This document shows, piece after piece, positions 29,303-49,691 of a stretch of 64,000 bases of DNA. This DNA is from Escherichia phage ES17. The stretch lies in the sequence record NC_070984.1. One strand, 5' to 3'. Every line of letters begins with the position of its first letter. Position 1 is the stretch's first letter. The position numbers and the translations under genes were made by a program. The notes under the pieces were generated by a model. The model did not search any database and was not told where the DNA came from. It saw nothing but the letters and a program-made list of their open reading frames with translations.

Positions 29303-29530
29303 CTAGATTAAATCGTAATACTGAATAATGTCAGAGAGTTTGAACTCTCGAATCTCATCTTTCTCTACATCTATCGCTGTCATAATCCAACAAGGTTTGC
29401 CACCGTTATGAAAACGGGAGCTAGCAACGGAGGTTCGGAGTGGAATAACGGACCGGTCAGCAACCTCGCCTCTCCAATTGCGATAGCGAAAGCGAAGCAC
29501 TTGTTGCGTAGATTTTTGACCATCACTCAT
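29303..29530 (-). CDS. Hypothetical protein (75 aa)
   Basis: Internal start (MSDGQ...) of ORF-track 29303..29671 with SD AAGGAA; upstream extension would overlap the HNH gene. Confidence 0.4.
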   Translation of the reverse strand: MSDGQKSTQQVLRFRYRNWRGEVADRSVIPLRTSVASSRFHNGGKPCWIMTAIDVEKDEIREFKLSDIIQYYDLI

Positions 29531-29924
29531 TTCCTTTTTTGAATTGTTTTCTTGCATCATTCTCTTCTTTTGTTTTAATCTTATGACAAGGGTCTTTACA
29601 CAGAACCTGAAAACCTTCTTTCTCACACAGAGCACGAGAGATGATCTCATCCCAAGTGGCTTCATGGTCAAGAGGAACTATAGGCTCTATGTGGTCAATA
29701 GCCATATCCTTTACAGGGTGGTCAGAACCACACATGGCACACTTAAAGTGCATTGCCAGTCTACCTGTCTTTGGATTAATCTTCTGCTCTGTCTTGGCGT
29801 CTGCTAGTGCATCGAACATGGGCTTCCACTTTCTAGTCAGAGAACGAATCCCTGACTTGATAAAAGAATTGTAACGAGCTTCAGTCCACATTCCAGAGCA
29901 TCTAGTCTTCTCAGCCTTCGCCAT
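29523..29924 (-). CDS. HNH endonuclease
   Basis: HFKCAMCGSDHPVKDMAIDHIEPIVP...CKDPCHKIK: HNH His-Me finger with Cys pairs. Confidence 0.75.
   Translation of the reverse strand: MAKAEKTRCSGMWTEARYNSFIKSGIRSLTRKWKPMFDALADAKTEQKINPKTGRLAMHFKCAMCGSDHPVKDMAIDHIEPIVPLDHEATWDEIISRALCEKEGFQVLCKDPCHKIKTKEENDARKQFKKGNE

Positions 29925-31810: not shown

Positions 31811-31814
<4 letters not shown>
30921..31814 (-). CDS. P-loop nucleotide kinase (dNMP kinase-like) with N-terminal coiled-coil extension
   Basis: Walker A VVILNGPPGCGKDT (GKDT as in T4 gp1 dNMP kinase), Walker B-like DIIVFTDGG; ATGA overlap with upstream gene. Confidence 0.55.
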
Positions 31815-33104
<1,290 letters not shown>

Positions 33105-41207: not shown

Positions 41208-41657
41208 TCAACTCTCTTCTAGTATAATCCTGTACATTGCTTCCTGAGCATCTTTCATATCTACATATGGACCAAGCACCTCACTATCTTTTCTGATGAA
41301 CCAATCACCTTCTTTGAATATCAGAGATACGTGAACATCTTTATTATTTGCTTTGACTGCTCGCCCCCATGCTGGGTTATGTCGGGATAAATTATCAATA
41401 TGACAATTATCAGTGCGCCCATCCAGATGGTGTAAATAAGATTGAGGCCACTGGCCTGTCTCTTTATACCATACGGCTTTCTTCAATTCAACAATGCCAC
41501 ATGGTAGTCCTATGTATAGGATATTAGGCTGTAAGCTAAAATTATACCACTTAGATGTGAAAGGGATTAGAGGTTCCCTTTTGGTGAAAAACATCGGCCC
41601 CTCTCGAATGTATTCTAGACTATCTATACACTTCAAAATCTTTTCACTATAAAGCAT
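41208..41657 (-). CDS. HNH-family endonuclease (HNH_3-like)
   Basis: LHHLDGRTDNCHIDNLSRHNPAWG motif. Confidence 0.6.
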   Translation of the reverse strand: MLYSEKILKCIDSLEYIREGPMFFTKREPLIPFTSKWYNFSLQPNILYIGLPCGIVELKKAVWYKETGQWPQSYLHHLDGRTDNCHIDNLSRHNPAWGRAVKANNKDVHVSLIFKEGDWFIRKDSEVLGPYVDMKDAQEAMYRIILEES

Positions 41658-43307: not shown

Positions 43308-43964
43308 TTAACTCTCCAAAGTTTTCTTCAGAGCTGCCCATGAGATTGGGTAGAGCTTAGCCATCTCTTCATCTACGGATTTAGCAAACACTCGAACTTC
43401 ATATTGAGCGTGAGATGAGAGTCGCTGACGACACAACTCAAACCAGCCATACAAAGAACCAGTCCACACCCACTCAGTGATCATCCCCTGAGGAAGAACA
43501 AATCGAGCTTGCTCTGGTGCAATAAATTCAATCAACTTGTCATATGTTGCTAGAGAAGCTTCATATGCATCGTTAATTAACATTAATGCTTCAGCTCGCT
43601 CTCCGTCGATGAGTTGAATCCCTGAACCTGCATGGAGGTCCGAAGGTCTCGCAAAAATCTCTTTAGGGATGAAGACTTCAACTGCTCCATCTTTATACCG
43701 CCGGGACATTTCGTTCCACGAGAATCCAACCTGATGCTTGCCCAACTGTCTCGCAATTGCGATAGGTGCTTTGCATCGGAAACTGACTTGCGGGTGTCGG
43801 AATGGAGTACAGTGTTTTTCCCGTGCAAGGAAGTTGATAAGTTTTGTGTCTCTCTCATTTAAGTCACCTTCTCGAACAACACCGAAAGATACTCTAGCTG
43901 CATTGACTACAGATTTGTCACTACCCATTGCTTCAATCAGTGTTGCTTGTAGTTGTTCGTTCAA
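43308..43964 (-). CDS. thyX: Flavin-dependent thymidylate synthase family protein (ThyX-like)
   Basis: ThyX-type pattern ARVSFG...HCTPFRH...SRRY...ARFVLPQGMITEWVWTGSLYGWFELCRQRLSSHAQYEVR; the canonical RHR motif position appears as KHQ (by-eye alignment); TTG start with SD AAGGAA. Confidence 0.7.
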   Translation of the reverse strand: MNEQLQATLIEAMGSDKSVVNAARVSFGVVREGDLNERDTKLINFLAREKHCTPFRHPQVSFRCKAPIAIARQLGKHQVGFSWNEMSRRYKDGAVEVFIPKEIFARPSDLHAGSGIQLIDGERAEALMLINDAYEASLATYDKLIEFIAPEQARFVLPQGMITEWVWTGSLYGWFELCRQRLSSHAQYEVRVFAKSVDEEMAKLYPISWAALKKTLES

Positions 43965-44403
43965 TTAAAAGTTCCTTTTTTCGATTCATGTAAACTTGAT
44001 GAGCTTCTTCGGCAGTTCCATACATACCTAGATGTATATCTACTTTATCAATACAAATAACAGCCCTATATCTAATAGTCCCTGATTTATATTTGACAAC
44101 CTTAACACCTTGAAGCCCTGTTTCCTTGTTTGATACCCTAGCCCCGAACTGGTTGTGGCAGTTTGTCGAGGTGTCCACCAATCTCAAGTTCTGTATTGAG
44201 TTGTTCTTCTTATTTCTATCGATATGGTCTATCTGAGAAGAAGGCCACTCTCCATAGTAAAAGAACCATGCCACTTTATGAGCTTTGTGTACTTTCCCTT
44301 TAAACCGCAGGGTTATGTACTTACTTCGAGTTCCTCCTAATTTCTTACCTTTTCGAAAGAACTCTCCAGTCTCAGGGATATACTCTAAATCATCGATTAA
44401 CAT
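43933..44403 (-). CDS. HNH homing endonuclease with AP2-like DNA-binding domain
   Basis: EWPSSQIDHIDRNKKNNSIQNLRLVDTSTNCHNQ (HNH) followed by AP2-like GVKVVKYKSGTIRYRAVI. Confidence 0.75.
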   Translation of the reverse strand: MLIDDLEYIPETGEFFRKGKKLGGTRSKYITLRFKGKVHKAHKVAWFFYYGEWPSSQIDHIDRNKKNNSIQNLRLVDTSTNCHNQFGARVSNKETGLQGVKVVKYKSGTIRYRAVICIDKVDIHLGMYGTAEEAHQVYMNRKKELLIERTTTSNTD

Positions 44404-44668
44404 TCAGAGCTGTATCTAAAAATGCTTTCAGGTTTGCTTCAGTCTGCATACCAGAGAGGCTGTAGTGTGCACCACTGTTACGGTCAGGCACAACGAAAGC
44501 AGGGATACTTCGTACACCATACTTAACAGCTTGTTCACGACCATCACCTTCAAGGATGTTAATCTCTTCCACTTCTACATCAAACTCCTTAACAACCTTC
44601 TCAAAGGTAGGAGCCATTGCTTTACATGGAGCACACTGATCACTATAAAACTTAATTACTTTAGGCAT
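44390..44668 (-). CDS. Thioredoxin/glutaredoxin-like protein
   Basis: 92 aa with active-site CAPC (CxxC) in thioredoxin-fold context YSDQCAPCKAMAPTFEKV. Confidence 0.7.
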   Translation of the reverse strand: MPKVIKFYSDQCAPCKAMAPTFEKVVKEFDVEVEEINILEGDGREQAVKYGVRSIPAFVVPDRNSGAHYSLSGMQTEANLKAFLDTALNVNR

Positions 44669-44917: not shown

Positions 44918-45481
44918 TTAGTAAGACACGTCACCACTTGAATGGGACATGTTGCTCTTGACGAAGTAGCAATACTTGCCAAGACCTTCATTAATTTCTT
45001 GAAGCATACTCTGATCGACAGGGTAGGTGGCTAAATCACCATCAAACTCATCCATCTTCTCAATAATACACATCAAGGTCATGCACATATCAGAGAGCAT
45101 ACCGTCCATGTCTAGATCAGCGTTACCCTCTGAGAACCAAGCATGAGAGAGGTAGTTAGCTGCTGTAGCATCCACTTTAACACAGTGGTAACGCATACGT
45201 TCAGCAATACGATCTCCTACCTGTCGTGCGTAATCTTCCAGCTCATCAAACATACCATGAACACCCTGAAATCCTGCACCAGAGACGTTCCAGTGGTAGT
45301 TTTTAGCTTTGATATGCAAGAGTTCCATGTTAGCTTGTAAGCAGCTCAGGATGTGTTCTAGGCTGTTTGCACTAATCATGCCTTGCATTGTTTCAAGGCG
45401 AGAGATTGAAAGCTCAGACCGGTCTAACATACTATAACTGTCACGACCAATCTCAGGTAAATCAAAGACATTCTTATGCAT
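44918..45481 (-). CDS. dps: Dps-like ferritin (DNA protection during starvation family)
   Basis: Dps signature KAKNYHWNVSGAGFQGVHGMFDELEDY...DRIAERM and C-terminal YFVKSNM; start at ATG 45481 with SD GGAGAAAA. Confidence 0.7.
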   Translation of the reverse strand: MHKNVFDLPEIGRDSYSMLDRSELSISRLETMQGMISANSLEHILSCLQANMELLHIKAKNYHWNVSGAGFQGVHGMFDELEDYARQVGDRIAERMRYHCVKVDATAANYLSHAWFSEGNADLDMDGMLSDMCMTLMCIIEKMDEFDGDLATYPVDQSMLQEINEGLGKYCYFVKSNMSHSSGDVSY

Positions 45482-45803
45482 TTGGGTTTTCTCCATCAAG
45501 TTCAACTGAATTAGCAACATTACGTGCAATATTATCCATTACCTGCTGGGTAATTACGATGCAGTTCTGTGGATCTACTGACTTAGAACGCCCCATTTCA
45601 GGGTCATACACCTTAACTCGCTTAGCAGTTGAACCTGTAACCTGAAGAACCTTCAACAGATATCCCTGATTACCGATAGACCAAGCAACAACATCACGAT
45701 TCTTGATAAAGCGACCAAGCATATCACGATGATAAAACTGTTGCATCACCTTGGATTTTGTAATCTCTTCAGTGGGCGGGGCCACTTTACTCAAATCTAA
45801 CAT
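45474..45803 (-). CDS. Hypothetical protein (109 aa)
   Basis: Promoter-like motif about 40 nt upstream. Confidence 0.4.
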   Translation of the reverse strand: MLDLSKVAPPTEEITKSKVMQQFYHRDMLGRFIKNRDVVAWSIGNQGYLLKVLQVTGSTAKRVKVYDPEMGRSKSVDPQNCIVITQQVMDNIARNVANSVELDGENPNA

Positions 45804-46761: not shown

Positions 46762-47271
46762 CTATCTTTCATCCACATTAAAGGATAGGTGAAGCCTACT
46801 TCTCATAGACTTCGCTAGGAGTTTTGCCTCTTCAAGAGTTTTCACTCCATATACAGACTCACGTTTACCATCTTTTTGAATAGATACACAGAATGTCCCG
46901 CCCTTCTCTTGGTAGACATTCTTAACTCCTAGTTTGTTATCAACCCTTGTCTTAGCATTCTGACTGTTCTCAGAGTGATAGCACTTTCTCAGGTTAGTTT
47001 CTTCTAGGTTTTCTCTGTTACCATCGGCATGATCTATTTGATATTCATCCGATAAATCCTCACCAGTATAAAGAACAAAAAGAATCCTATGATTGTGGAC
47101 ATGAACTCCTCCTAAGGGAATTTGATAATATCCATCTTTTGTGAGCTTGCCAGCAGGTTTACCTACTATATCATTAGCAAACTTACTAGGCTTCCTTTTC
47201 CAAGAAAGCCCTGAAGGTGATGACATGTCTATGTTAAAGAGATCAACTACTTCATCATAGCATATCAGCAT
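46762..47271 (-). CDS. HNH homing endonuclease with AP2-like domain
   Basis: HNHRILFVLYTGEDLSDEYQIDHADGNRENLEETNLRKCYHSENSQN plus AP2-like GVKNVYQEKGGTFCVSIQ; start at internal ATG 47271 with SD GGTGG; paralog of 43933..44403. Confidence 0.7.
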   Translation of the reverse strand: MLICYDEVVDLFNIDMSSPSGLSWKRKPSKFANDIVGKPAGKLTKDGYYQIPLGGVHVHNHRILFVLYTGEDLSDEYQIDHADGNRENLEETNLRKCYHSENSQNAKTRVDNKLGVKNVYQEKGGTFCVSIQKDGKRESVYGVKTLEEAKLLAKSMRSRLHLSFNVDER

Positions 47272-47809
47272 GATTTGTTCCACCAAAAGCTTTTGTTGGC
47301 CCTTGTTGGTTATTATATGAACCTTTCGTTGCGTAGCTGTCCTCTTCGGATGAAGAGTGTTTAAAGAATTCCATTTGACCAATACGCATTCCCGGTTTGA
47401 TCAGCAGAGAGTGATGCTGTAGAACATTCTTGAATTCCATAGTTAACTGGCTACCATGCCAACCGCCGTCAGCATGACCAGCGTGCATGTGCTCTAAGAA
47501 ACAACGACCAACAGTGGACCGTAGCATGAAATCGCAGCTAATATTATCTGGCAGATTGAATGTCTCCATTGTATGAGCCAAGAAACACTCACCCGGTTTG
47601 ATCACTAACCCTTCCTCTGGAATCATAACCTCATTGAAGTTAGGAGATTCTTTAGCAGAGATATCAACAACCCCGTTAGCTGCACCTTCCATTAGAACGC
47701 GATCTCCAATACGAACATCAATGCTGGAGGAATTAACAGCTGAGTGTGGTGCATCAATAACACCATCATCAATTAATTTATGTAACTCTGGACTTCCTAG
47801 TAAACTCAT
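47255..47809 (-). CDS. dcd: dCTP deaminase / dUTPase-fold enzyme
   Basis: 184 aa; N-terminal pattern ...LIDDGVID...SSIDVRIGDRV typical of dCTP deaminase. Confidence 0.75.
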   Translation of the reverse strand: MSLLGSPELHKLIDDGVIDAPHSAVNSSSIDVRIGDRVLMEGAANGVVDISAKESPNFNEVMIPEEGLVIKPGECFLAHTMETFNLPDNISCDFMLRSTVGRCFLEHMHAGHADGGWHGSQLTMEFKNVLQHHSLLIKPGMRIGQMEFFKHSSSEEDSYATKGSYNNQQGPTKAFGGTNHADML

Positions 47810-47818
47810 TCTTATTCC

Positions 47819-49132
47819 TTAGTTATTTGTTTCCATGTCAAAAGAGATTCCACGACCCGCTTCATCGGCAAACCGAACTGTACGGGTTTGAGGTTCTAAT
47901 ACTTCAGGGTTGTTAGCAATAAAGCGATCAGCGAGACTATCTCCCAAATCTTGTTCCATACCTTCATCAGTCCAGATAACACGAGAAGGGGCGTTGATAT
48001 CACCAACAGCGAAACCCTGACCAGAGAACTGACGTGCGCTAACAGTTAAGCCGTTTGGTCGACCACGAGAGGGTCTAGCCATCCATCGCTCCATAGAATC
48101 ACTTGTAATACCAAGAGCTTCTTCAAAAGATGTTCTACGAGTAGGGCTTTCTCTTCGTGACTCTTGTGCTCGACGCATTGCAGGGGCTACAAACACCCCT
48201 TCAATTGCATTGTGTCGGTTAGGTTCCTCTTCTCGACCAAGCAGATCACCACCCGTGTTAGTCGTTAAATTTGTCAACCCCTCAGACCAATACGCATGAA
48301 TCTGACCAGAACCGTGAAGACTAGACATAATCTGAATCTCTTCATAAGGGATTCCAAAGAATCGACTCATGTCTCGGTTAACACAATATAGAGCACTTGT
48401 TGTATCTTCAATAAGAGAAACCTGACCTAATCCATTGACTAGATGACTAACTGGCTGAGGTGTGGGAAGATATCGAGTTTGGGCCATGTATTGATGCGCA
48501 ACTGCTGGAGAGGAAAATCTCAACACTTGTGAGTTAGGCCACTTCTTGTGAACATACCTGATTTCACGACTAGAGACAACCACTGGACAAGGGGAAGTCA
48601 TAGCCAAATATCCGTGAGAAGTCATGAATAAGTTGTCAAGAGTCATCGCACCACGGCACATCATAGGAAAATTATCCAATACCTCTTCAATAGAAGTAGG
48701 ATAATTAAACATGAATTGGATACGAACCCCATTCCACTGAAACTCAATAATATCAGTGAATGTTAATTGAGAACCCCCAGCATAGGATTCGTTTGTAGCT
48801 TCAGCAAGAAGTGATGCATATTCAATATCTTGTGACTCTAGCCATTCCTTCACATTACTTTCAATCTCCCGTCCAAGCTCTTGCCAACGATCAGTTGGGA
48901 TGAAAGTGTTTTGAGTTCTTGGTGTTTGTCCTCTGACAATAAAGATATCAATGTCATGTGGAGCTATGTTATTAAGGACAGCATCACGAACAGCCCCACC
49001 AGTAATGATGGGACAGATACCATCTGGAATCAAGTTGTTGTTAATCAACTGTTCAATGAAGTGACGACCAACAGTGATATCAGGTTGTTGAGCAACCTTA
49101 TCTTCAATTTGGTTAATCGGGATAACAATCAT
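47819..49132 (-). CDS. Pol-beta-superfamily nucleotidyltransferase with CCA-adding-enzyme/poly(A)-polymerase-like head motif
   Basis: ITGGAVRDAVLNNIAPHDIDIFIV matches GGxVRD...DxD head-domain signature; about 300 aa C-terminal region of unknown function; start at ATG 49132. Confidence 0.5.
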   Translation of the reverse strand: MIVIPINQIEDKVAQQPDITVGRHFIEQLINNNLIPDGICPIITGGAVRDAVLNNIAPHDIDIFIVRGQTPRTQNTFIPTDRWQELGREIESNVKEWLESQDIEYASLLAEATNESYAGGSQLTFTDIIEFQWNGVRIQFMFNYPTSIEEVLDNFPMMCRGAMTLDNLFMTSHGYLAMTSPCPVVVSSREIRYVHKKWPNSQVLRFSSPAVAHQYMAQTRYLPTPQPVSHLVNGLGQVSLIEDTTSALYCVNRDMSRFFGIPYEEIQIMSSLHGSGQIHAYWSEGLTNLTTNTGGDLLGREEEPNRHNAIEGVFVAPAMRRAQESRRESPTRRTSFEEALGITSDSMERWMARPSRGRPNGLTVSARQFSGQGFAVGDINAPSRVIWTDEGMEQDLGDSLADRFIANNPEVLEPQTRTVRFADEAGRGISFDMETNN

Positions 49133-49133
49133 T

Positions 49134-49691
49134 TTACATTTTCCAATATAATGAAGGTGGGTCGTAAGGGTCAAATCCCGTGAGTTCACACAAGAAAAGA
49201 TAAACCTTAACAGTTAAGTTAACGTCCTGTTCACAATAAGTAAACATATCTTCAGTGAAAGCATCCCATGCTTCCTCTTGCTCACCATAATCGCCCTTAA
49301 GTTCTCCTAAGAACTCACCCCACTGCTTCAAACCATGACCCCTTGGGCCACGTCTAGGGTCGCCTTTCGGATACTCAGGACTGTCACCAATACGGTCAGG
49401 TTTAAGATATCGACTAAGACATAAAGTGTCGAAGACGTTAAAACGATAGTTAATCAGATTGGGATACATCTTCTTCAGAGCACAAAGGTCGAAGTCAATA
49501 ATATTGTGACCCACCAGTACATCTGCTTCTGTAAGTTTACGAATCCCATCTTCAATTTGGTGAGGCCGATAGCCCCACCTTTCACCAGTTTCAACATCGA
49601 AGATATAAATACACCATACTTTAGTTATGTCATCGTACAGTGCATTACTCTCGATATCGAATGCAAACACTTTCTTCTTTTTCTTTACCAC
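49134..49691 (-). CDS. DnaQ-like 3'-5' exonuclease, stand-alone proofreading domain
   Basis: Exo I FAFDIES, Exo [11 protein letters not shown], Exo III YCEQDV; encoded about 10 kb upstream of the polymerase domain gene. Confidence 0.8.

Follow-up and report, generated by a model that had tools for sequence, protein, structure and literature searches.

A phage-borne ThyX subfamily lacking both arginines of the RHR motif, represented by a probable thymidylate synthase of Escherichia phage ES17

The 64,000-nucleotide stretch of Escherichia phage ES17 analyzed here (sequence record NC_070984.1; hereafter, the window) makes up most of a Kuravirus (phiEco32-like, Gordonclarkvirinae) genome. Its replication and nucleotide-metabolism arm, which also holds genes for thioredoxin, PhoH, a family-A DNA polymerase and a primase-helicase, carries thyX, a gene whose product is a member of ThyX, the family of thymidylate synthases that depend on flavin, and lacks both arginines of the RHR motif. 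The 8-kb stretch around thyX is up to 97-99% identical in DNA sequence to many phages of this group, about 100 Kuravirus-like genomes carry the gene intact, and its product is 95-99% identical to those of phiEco32, SU10, and the BASEL phages Bas90 and Bas91; dozens of records already list the gene under the name thyX. The protein matched the Pfam model Thy1 (PF02511) with E=4.3e-43 (147.8 bits against a cutoff of 24.8), the NCBIfam thyX equivalog model TIGR02170 with 129.3 bits (cutoff 87.9), and the PHROG "thymidylate synthase" with 2.6e-62, placing the open reading frame (ORF) in the ThyX family far beyond chance. The first-pass annotation, made from the letters alone, had called the protein clearly ThyX-like; all the strings that it quoted are present in the translation, and the curated models agree with it.

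The codons at 43695..43739 (-) encode KHQVGFSWNEMSRRY. When the protein was compared with solved structures by phmmer, ARQLGKHQVGFSWNEMSRRY was placed on ARQWFRHRIA-SYNELSGRY of Thermotoga maritima and ARQWFRHRTA-SVNEISGRY of Thermus thermophilus, and when 12 named phage ThyX proteins were aligned with it by MAFFT, the register was identical. From the T. maritima enzyme (Tm) to the window protein, R78 becomes K76, H79 becomes H77, and R80 becomes Q78; after one inserted residue, S88 corresponds to S87, G89 to R88, R90 to R89, and Y91 to Y90. The ThyX signature R-H-R-x7/8-S is thus replaced in register by K-H-Q-x8-S, which retains the His and the Ser but neither Arg. The first-pass annotation had read the triad as KHQ(x8)S by eye, and this reading was correct in both alignments, the one against characterized enzymes leaving RHR unconserved in register. 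The spacing of eight is not unusual, because the RHR-bearing proteins of mycobacteriophage Fludd and Streptomyces phage R4 also have eight residues between the triad and the Ser. The true deviation is the loss of both arginines.

This loss is not peculiar to the window but is a trait of a large phage-borne subfamily. Among the nearest 120 clusters at 90% identity, which reach down to 54% identity, all carried KHQ-x8-S[RM]RY except for one with KSQ. An exhaustive phmmer search of 1.84 billion representatives returned 6,836 relatives, 344 of them at E<=1e-30; in the best 150 of the 6,836, the triads included KHQ (73), KHK (15), RHT (10), RHQ (6), KHT (5), and RST (4), and RHR occurred only once. 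Hundreds of more distant viral and metagenomic homologues shared the signature K-H-x-[VI]-G-x2-W-N-E-x-S-R-R-Y, and the subfamily consensus reads ..APIFVARQLxKHQVGxxWNExSRRY..KQGS..APEQARxVLPQ..WTGSL..R..HAQxE. In the MAFFT alignment, the variant form was found in Salmonella phage 7-11 (Moazamivirus), the Chaseviridae phage TH25, the T5-like Vibrio phage Ceto, and Pectobacterium phage CB7 (Certrevirus), as well as in the Rheinheimera Barba phages (Barbavirus; KHK), the N4-like Nepra (KHK), Bacillus phage Eoghan (KYV), and Streptomyces phage Bordeaux (KYA). The RHR triad was kept in mycobacteriophages Fludd and Tiger, Streptomyces phage R4, and cyanophage S-PRM1. A large branch of ThyX without the signature arginines is thereby recognized, of which we found no description in the searchable literature.

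Column statistics over 473 collected members, aligned to the subfamily profile, revealed that the extended-motif and catalytic residues of canonical ThyX are present and about 94-100% conserved. H51 (Tm H53) was kept in 453 members, R72 in 443, Q73 in 455, E85 in 470, S87 in 471, R89 in 470, Y90 in 470, E151 in 472, R154 (Tm R147) in 473, R181 (Tm R174) in 473, and Q187 in 472. Within the triad, position 76 was basic (K in 433, R in 31) and the His was kept in 447 of the 473; position 78 drifted, with Q in 366, T in 40, K in 29, H in 7, V in 6, and R in 5. At position 88, directly after the motif Ser, 458 of the 473 (97%) carried Arg. Ten sequences had Met there; one of them, P0122, was only partly aligned, and in all nine of the listed Met-88 members the second residue upstream was Arg (NERSMRY, where the window protein reads NEMSRRY). 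Intermediate forms such as RHR with SRRY, KHR with SGRY, and RHV with SARY were also present, as expected for drift with compensation. At query position 176 (Tm N169, an Asn that contacts flavin adenine dinucleotide, FAD), 58% of the subfamily had Arg; the window protein has Glu there and an Arg at 179 instead, another mobile basic residue near the flavin pocket. At the level of the gene, comparison of the window thyX with that of Bas90 gave dS 0.43 and dN 0.035 (synonymous and nonsynonymous divergence), that is, a dN/dS of 0.08, and the gene is under purifying selection.

An AlphaFold2 (AF2) monomer model built on the subfamily alignment reached a mean pLDDT (per-residue confidence) of 95.4 and a pTM (global fold confidence) of 0.89, and the 50 PDB matches listed by Foldseek were all T. 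maritima ThyX, with TM-scores of 0.77-0.82. ThyX enzymes are homotetramers whose active sites lie between subunits, and the model covers a single chain. The subfamily profile scored 203 bits against T. thermophilus ThyX, 180 bits against T. maritima ThyX, and only 51 bits against Mycobacterium tuberculosis ThyX; since the Thermus and Thermotoga enzymes score highest, the subfamily branches beside the canonical short ThyX rather than far outside the family. With T. maritima TM0449 (PDB 1kq4/1o26) and the T. thermophilus enzyme (PDB 6j61), the window protein shares the fold (TM-score 0.82, about 210 aligned columns) and 33-34% identity, and it keeps the residues at Tm H53, H59, R74, Q75, N85, E86, S88, R90, Y91, E144, R147, R174, H178, and Q180. 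It differs from them in having KHQ for RHR, one extra residue before the Ser, and the changes G89 to R, W76 to L, and E58 to R, and also in motifs typical of the subfamily: V-G behind the triad, QGS in a loop, VLPQ, and WTGSL. The ThyX proteins of Fludd, Tiger, R4, and S-PRM1 are likewise phage-encoded and lie in nucleotide-metabolism regions; however, they retain RHR, follow the motif Ser with Gly or Gln instead of Arg, and are only 25-31% identical to the window protein.

The features in and around thyX are listed in Table 1. The first-pass annotation had named a dCTP deaminase and a kinase-like P-loop protein as context, and both calls held, the former by passing the TIGR02274 cutoff and the latter through PHROG 139. 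In relatives, as annotated in Bas90, the thioredoxin-like gene is directly upstream of thyX. To survey the subfamily more widely, 80 IMG/VR loci were fetched with the subfamily profile. All 64 of the ThyX proteins there that matched the motif pattern were variant (KHQ 58, KHT 4, KHK 2), and all had Arg after the Ser. The neighbours in the 80 loci were family-A DNA polymerase (39), T7-type primase-helicase (38), class II ribonucleotide reductase (25), MazG (18), metallophosphoesterase (16), T7 endonuclease I (14), T7-type RNA polymerase (14), dUTPase (8), and PhoH (7). A metagenomic protein of 476 aa (P0181; L015 141..1571) is a fusion of a non-RHR ThyX (RHT...SRRY) with a deoxynucleoside monophosphate (dNMP) kinase domain (Pfam DNMK), and its P-loop, GEMGAGKDT, resembles the GPPGCGKDT of the window P-loop protein. 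The fusion argues that the ThyX product is a dNMP that is passed on to the kinase.

Table 1. Positions of thyX, its motif segments and neighbouring genes in the window
Feature	Position	Strand	Evidence
thyX, 218-aa ThyX of the non-RHR ("class B", phage-type) subfamily	43308..43964	-	Pfam/NCBIfam/PHROG models, AF2, Foldseek
Start codon TTG of thyX	43962..43964	-	sequence
Shine-Dalgarno sequence AAGGA of thyX	43973..43977	-	sequence
Variant motif K76-H77-Q78-V-G-F-S-W-N-E-M-S87-R88-R89-Y90, replacing canonical RHR-x7/8-S-x-R-Y	43695..43739	-	translation, alignments
Segment from R154 (Tm R147, dUMP phosphate) to R181 (Tm R174, uracil O4/N3 contact, substrate activation); holds VLPQ and WTGSL	43422..43505	-	translation
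HNH homing-endonuclease gene between trx and thyX	43933..44403	-	Pfam HNH_3 1.6e-13
Thioredoxin-like protein	44390..44668	-	TIGR01068 4e-13, below curated cutoff
dCTP deaminase	47255..47809	-	Pfam DCD 4.5e-32; TIGR02274 101 bits (cutoff 92.8)
P-loop dNMP-kinase-like protein, GPPGCGKDT near residue 110, extended N-terminally by about 100 aa	30921..31820	-	PHROG 139 "deoxynucleoside monophosphate kinase" 5e-55

In canonical enzymes, the RHR residues hold FAD by its phosphates and ribityl chain, with the first Arg contacting the isoalloxazine ring (PMC6514825), and R78, R80, S88, and R90 of T. maritima ThyX hydrogen-bond deoxyuridine monophosphate (dUMP) (PMC3498832). In the enzyme of PBCV-1, residue 89 can place its side chain in the pocket for the dUMP phosphate (PMC3498832). 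We consider it most likely that the window protein is a functional flavin-dependent synthase that converts dUMP to deoxythymidine monophosphate (dTMP) with a rewired phosphate-binding motif. The replacement of the first Arg by Lys would keep the charge; the third Arg would have been given up, leaving its position free to vary; and the new Arg by the motif Ser (S-R-R-Y or R-S-M-R-Y) would take over a contact to the phosphate of dUMP or FAD. One phosphate-binding Arg has probably moved from the triad to the serine loop, a compensatory role for R88 that we infer from the sequences. The predicted enzyme would methylate dUMP to dTMP with methylenetetrahydrofolate (CH2-THF), reduced flavin and NAD(P)H. 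The dCTP deaminase would supply dUTP and, after dUTPase, dUMP as its substrate, and the P-loop dNMP kinase presumably phosphorylates dTMP. Together, the three would form a dTTP-supply module for a phage of 42% GC; the host has about 51% GC. Both the activity and the product of the enzyme are what we infer from its family, its conserved residues and its neighbours.

Several points weigh against this interpretation. The two lost arginines are both described as conserved ligand contacts (PMC6514825, PMC3498832). The subfamily profile matched 21 ThyX sequences in PDB, every one of them a canonical enzyme, and our literature search found no published assay or structure of a non-RHR member. As sampled, the subfamily occurs on phage genomes and viral-size contigs only, and there is no known organism that relies on it for thymidylate. 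A profile search of 5.8 billion proteins listed solely unnamed proteins, on contigs of 79 kb or less, and a scan of genome contigs for cellular carriers with the single protein, which reaches only close relatives, gave one 526-bp contig in a Herbiconiux assembly, probably a contamination. In addition, Gordonclarkvirinae are reported to be strikingly resistant to restriction-modification with no known DNA modification pathway (PMC11990801), while the window holds 38 EcoRV, 8 EcoRI, and 8 EcoKI sites, and 5-hydroxymethyl-dUMP is the acid-trapped derivative of a ThyX reaction intermediate (PMC3498832), so that a hydroxymethylating ThyX variant is chemically conceivable.

It is possible, though only tentatively put forward, that the branch catalyzes the same reaction with altered physical properties, namely in the binding of the FAD pyrophosphate, in the use of flavin mononucleotide (FMN), or in tighter dUMP binding or faster turnover; with comparable reserve, such changes could be seen as adapting a notoriously slow enzyme to the short replication window of a phage. 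This would be compatible with a dUMP-to-dTMP synthase. The subfamily has a coordinated and conserved signature at sites that line the phosphate pockets of FAD and dUMP (K76, L74 for Trp, V79-G80, W83, R88, the QGS loop and VLPQ). RHR itself is a flavin-binding motif (PMC6514825), and the occurrence of the sampled subfamily on phage genomes and viral-size contigs only would also fit. However, drift with compensation accounts for the pattern without any adaptive change.

A more far-reaching proposal is that the ThyX has acquired a new function, transferring the methylene group to dUMP and releasing 5-hydroxymethyl-dUMP or another C5-substituted dUMP that feeds a protective thymidine modification, with the product possibly elaborated by the amidoligase operon of the window. 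If true, a ThyX fold would for the first time provide an entry into DNA base modification, and the restriction resistance of Gordonclarkvirinae would be explained. The loss of both signature arginines, that resistance in the presence of the sites, the acid-trapped derivative and the finding of the sampled subfamily on phage genomes and viral-size contigs only would agree with such a role. Lee et al. also described amidoligase and amidotransferase genes beside thymidine-hypermodification genes in metaviromes (PMC8989533), and an operon of this kind is present in the window. Nevertheless, we regard the proposal as improbable. The subfamily is common on contigs of small T7-like podophages and in many unrelated phage families without such an operon, and the third position of the motif drifts instead of being fixed to a new residue, a pattern of relaxed constraint and compensation rather than of selection for a new function. 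What the first-pass annotation called an amide-ligase operon has a name already, the phiEco32-type COOH-NH2 ligase/amidoligase cluster, and one of its ORFs without an assigned function weakly resembles a Pup ligase/deamidase, not a DNA transferase.

The genes expected of a known modification route were searched for as well. The ThyA-type dUMP hydroxymethylases (SPO1; M6 gp58) use dUMP and CH2-THF as ThyX does and form the known route to C5-modified thymidine (PMC8989533), but they have a fold unrelated to ThyX, and no homologue of them or of their partners, the 5-hydroxymethyldeoxyuridine (5-hmdU) DNA kinase 5-HMUDK and the amino-acid:DNA transferase ADDT, was detected in the window. The Pfam models for the 5-hmdU DNA kinase (HMUDK_HMUD1/HMUDK_hel) and ADDT (aGPT-Pplase) were run on roughly 35 ORFs of the window, among them the P-loop protein and three operon ORFs of unassigned function, and matched none, whereas phage M6 gp54 (7.7e-18) and gp55 (8e-56) matched the HMUDK models as positive controls and the ADDT control scored 1.4e-46. 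The P-loop protein gave no match to HMUDK_HMUD1 even at E<=1. A six-frame phmmer search of the window with the M6 kinase, transferase and ThyA-type hydroxymethylase found none of them, gp58 giving nothing better than E=0.03, on a wrong-strand ORF of 52 codons. In relatives, thyX is the only thymidylate-synthase-like gene annotated, and what remains of a related genome consists solely of small early and structural genes. No dTTPase or dTMPase that would exclude thymidine was recognized in the window scans or in the annotation of relatives.

The DNA itself points in the same direction. After Markov correction, CTGCAG (0 observed vs 17.4 expected), GAGCTC (0 vs 16.2), CCATGG (0 vs 7.4), CACGTG (0 vs 7.0), CCWGG (8 vs 80), and GATC (131 vs 284) were avoided in the window, and AT-rich 6-mers were not. 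The strong avoidance of CTGCAG, GAGCTC, CCWGG, and GATC suggests past exposure of the DNA to restriction. Restriction profiling served to map the phiEco32 termini (PMC9965538), so the DNA of that phage can be cut by at least some enzymes. Against base composition alone, the EcoRV sites number 38 vs 19.8 expected. Avoidance of sites as the cause of the restriction resistance was ruled out for EcoRV, EcoRI, and EcoKI, whose sites are present. The first-pass annotation had connected the altered triad with a non-canonical pyrimidine pathway, and this connection was not supported: KHQ is the norm in a large subfamily that many unrelated phage groups carry, mostly in T7-like replication modules on viral metagenome contigs, the uracil-reading and catalytic residues are kept, and the hallmark genes were undetected. 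A role of the window ThyX in making a modified pyrimidine is unsupported. Also seen in the base-composition counts was CAGCAG, present 93 times vs 21 expected.

It is still less probable that the protein is a ThyX-fold methylase acting on dCMP, UMP, or dUTP/dUDP in place of dUMP. The phosphate-contacting arginines are changed, an extra Arg is present, and the phage produces dUTP via its dCTP deaminase; ThyX homologues with other substrates exist, such as the polyoxin enzyme PolB, which acts on UMP. However, the uracil-reading R181 (Tm R174) and E85, S87, R89, and Y90 are essentially invariant, the fusion to a dNMP kinase argues for a monophosphate product, and the TIGR02170 equivalog model was passed with a margin. 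An inactive remnant, decayed and kept by chance or for a non-catalytic role, would explain the absence of two residues regarded as essential ligand contacts, but hardly deserves credence given the low dN/dS, the intact gene in so many Kuravirus-like genomes, the conservation of the catalytic residues across the 473 homologues, and the confidently predicted fold.

That a very large phage-borne branch of ThyX does without both arginines, with a probably compensating Arg elsewhere, has several consequences. RHR-x7-S is treated as the defining ThyX signature and was used as a filter in at least one evolutionary study, discarding such sequences; Stern et al. (2010) dropped those with more than two dissimilar residues relative to RHRX7S. 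In annotation, filters based on the motif miss non-RHR thyX genes. Enzymologists and designers of inhibitors may read the branch as an experiment made by nature, showing which contacts can be spared, and for phage biology, it bears on whether these enzymes are tuned kinetically for phage replication. A working thymidylate synthase also argues against the deoxyuridine-containing DNA suggested for Gordonclarkvirinae, so that their restriction resistance needs another explanation.

Several metagenomic members (P0258, P0122, P0135, and others) carry inteins inside the ThyX motif, between KHxVG and [S/C]WNE. Inteins favour functionally essential sites. A cluster look-up gave no names for the intein-bearing or fused homologues. 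For the ThyX of Trichodesmium erythraeum, the title of a 2004 paper by Liu and Yang (J Bacteriol 186:6316) names "distinctive ThyX motifs" along with an intein and a group II intron, so that deviation from the ThyX consensus has reportedly been published before. An apparent second ThyX paralogue in 19 viral loci was rejected, since single linkage had pulled in FEN-like 5'-3' exonucleases as the extra members.

Among the other genes of the region, the SLOG-domain protein named in the first-pass annotation stood only marginally: the ORF at 31811..32203 (-), between the sigma factor and the P-loop kinase, is related to YspA/cpYpsA-type SLOG proteins just under the Pfam threshold (26.4 bits vs a cutoff of 28.2) and is listed in PHROGs as "GTP-binding domain". 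The 456-aa "nucleotidyltransferase" adjoining the dCTP deaminase (47819..49189, -), for which the BASEL authors consider a part in DNA modification possible, had only a sub-threshold match to the PolyA_pol head domain (E 0.0023). It had no relative among PDB sequences, and the P-loop protein gave nothing informative there. The ORF at 44918..45529 (-), called a "DNA-binding protein" in relatives, contains a ferritin-like (Dps-like) domain (Pfam Ferritin 2.9e-07).

The HNH gene next to thyX is outside the enzyme system. Its ORF overlaps the thyX start by 32 nt, and further HNH homing-endonuclease ORFs lie in the replication arm at 46762..47382, 41208..41657, and 29523..29924 (-). Bas90 has ATG at the codon homologous to the TTG start of the window thyX, and this change of start codon coincides with the HNH insert, which is absent at that position in Bas90.

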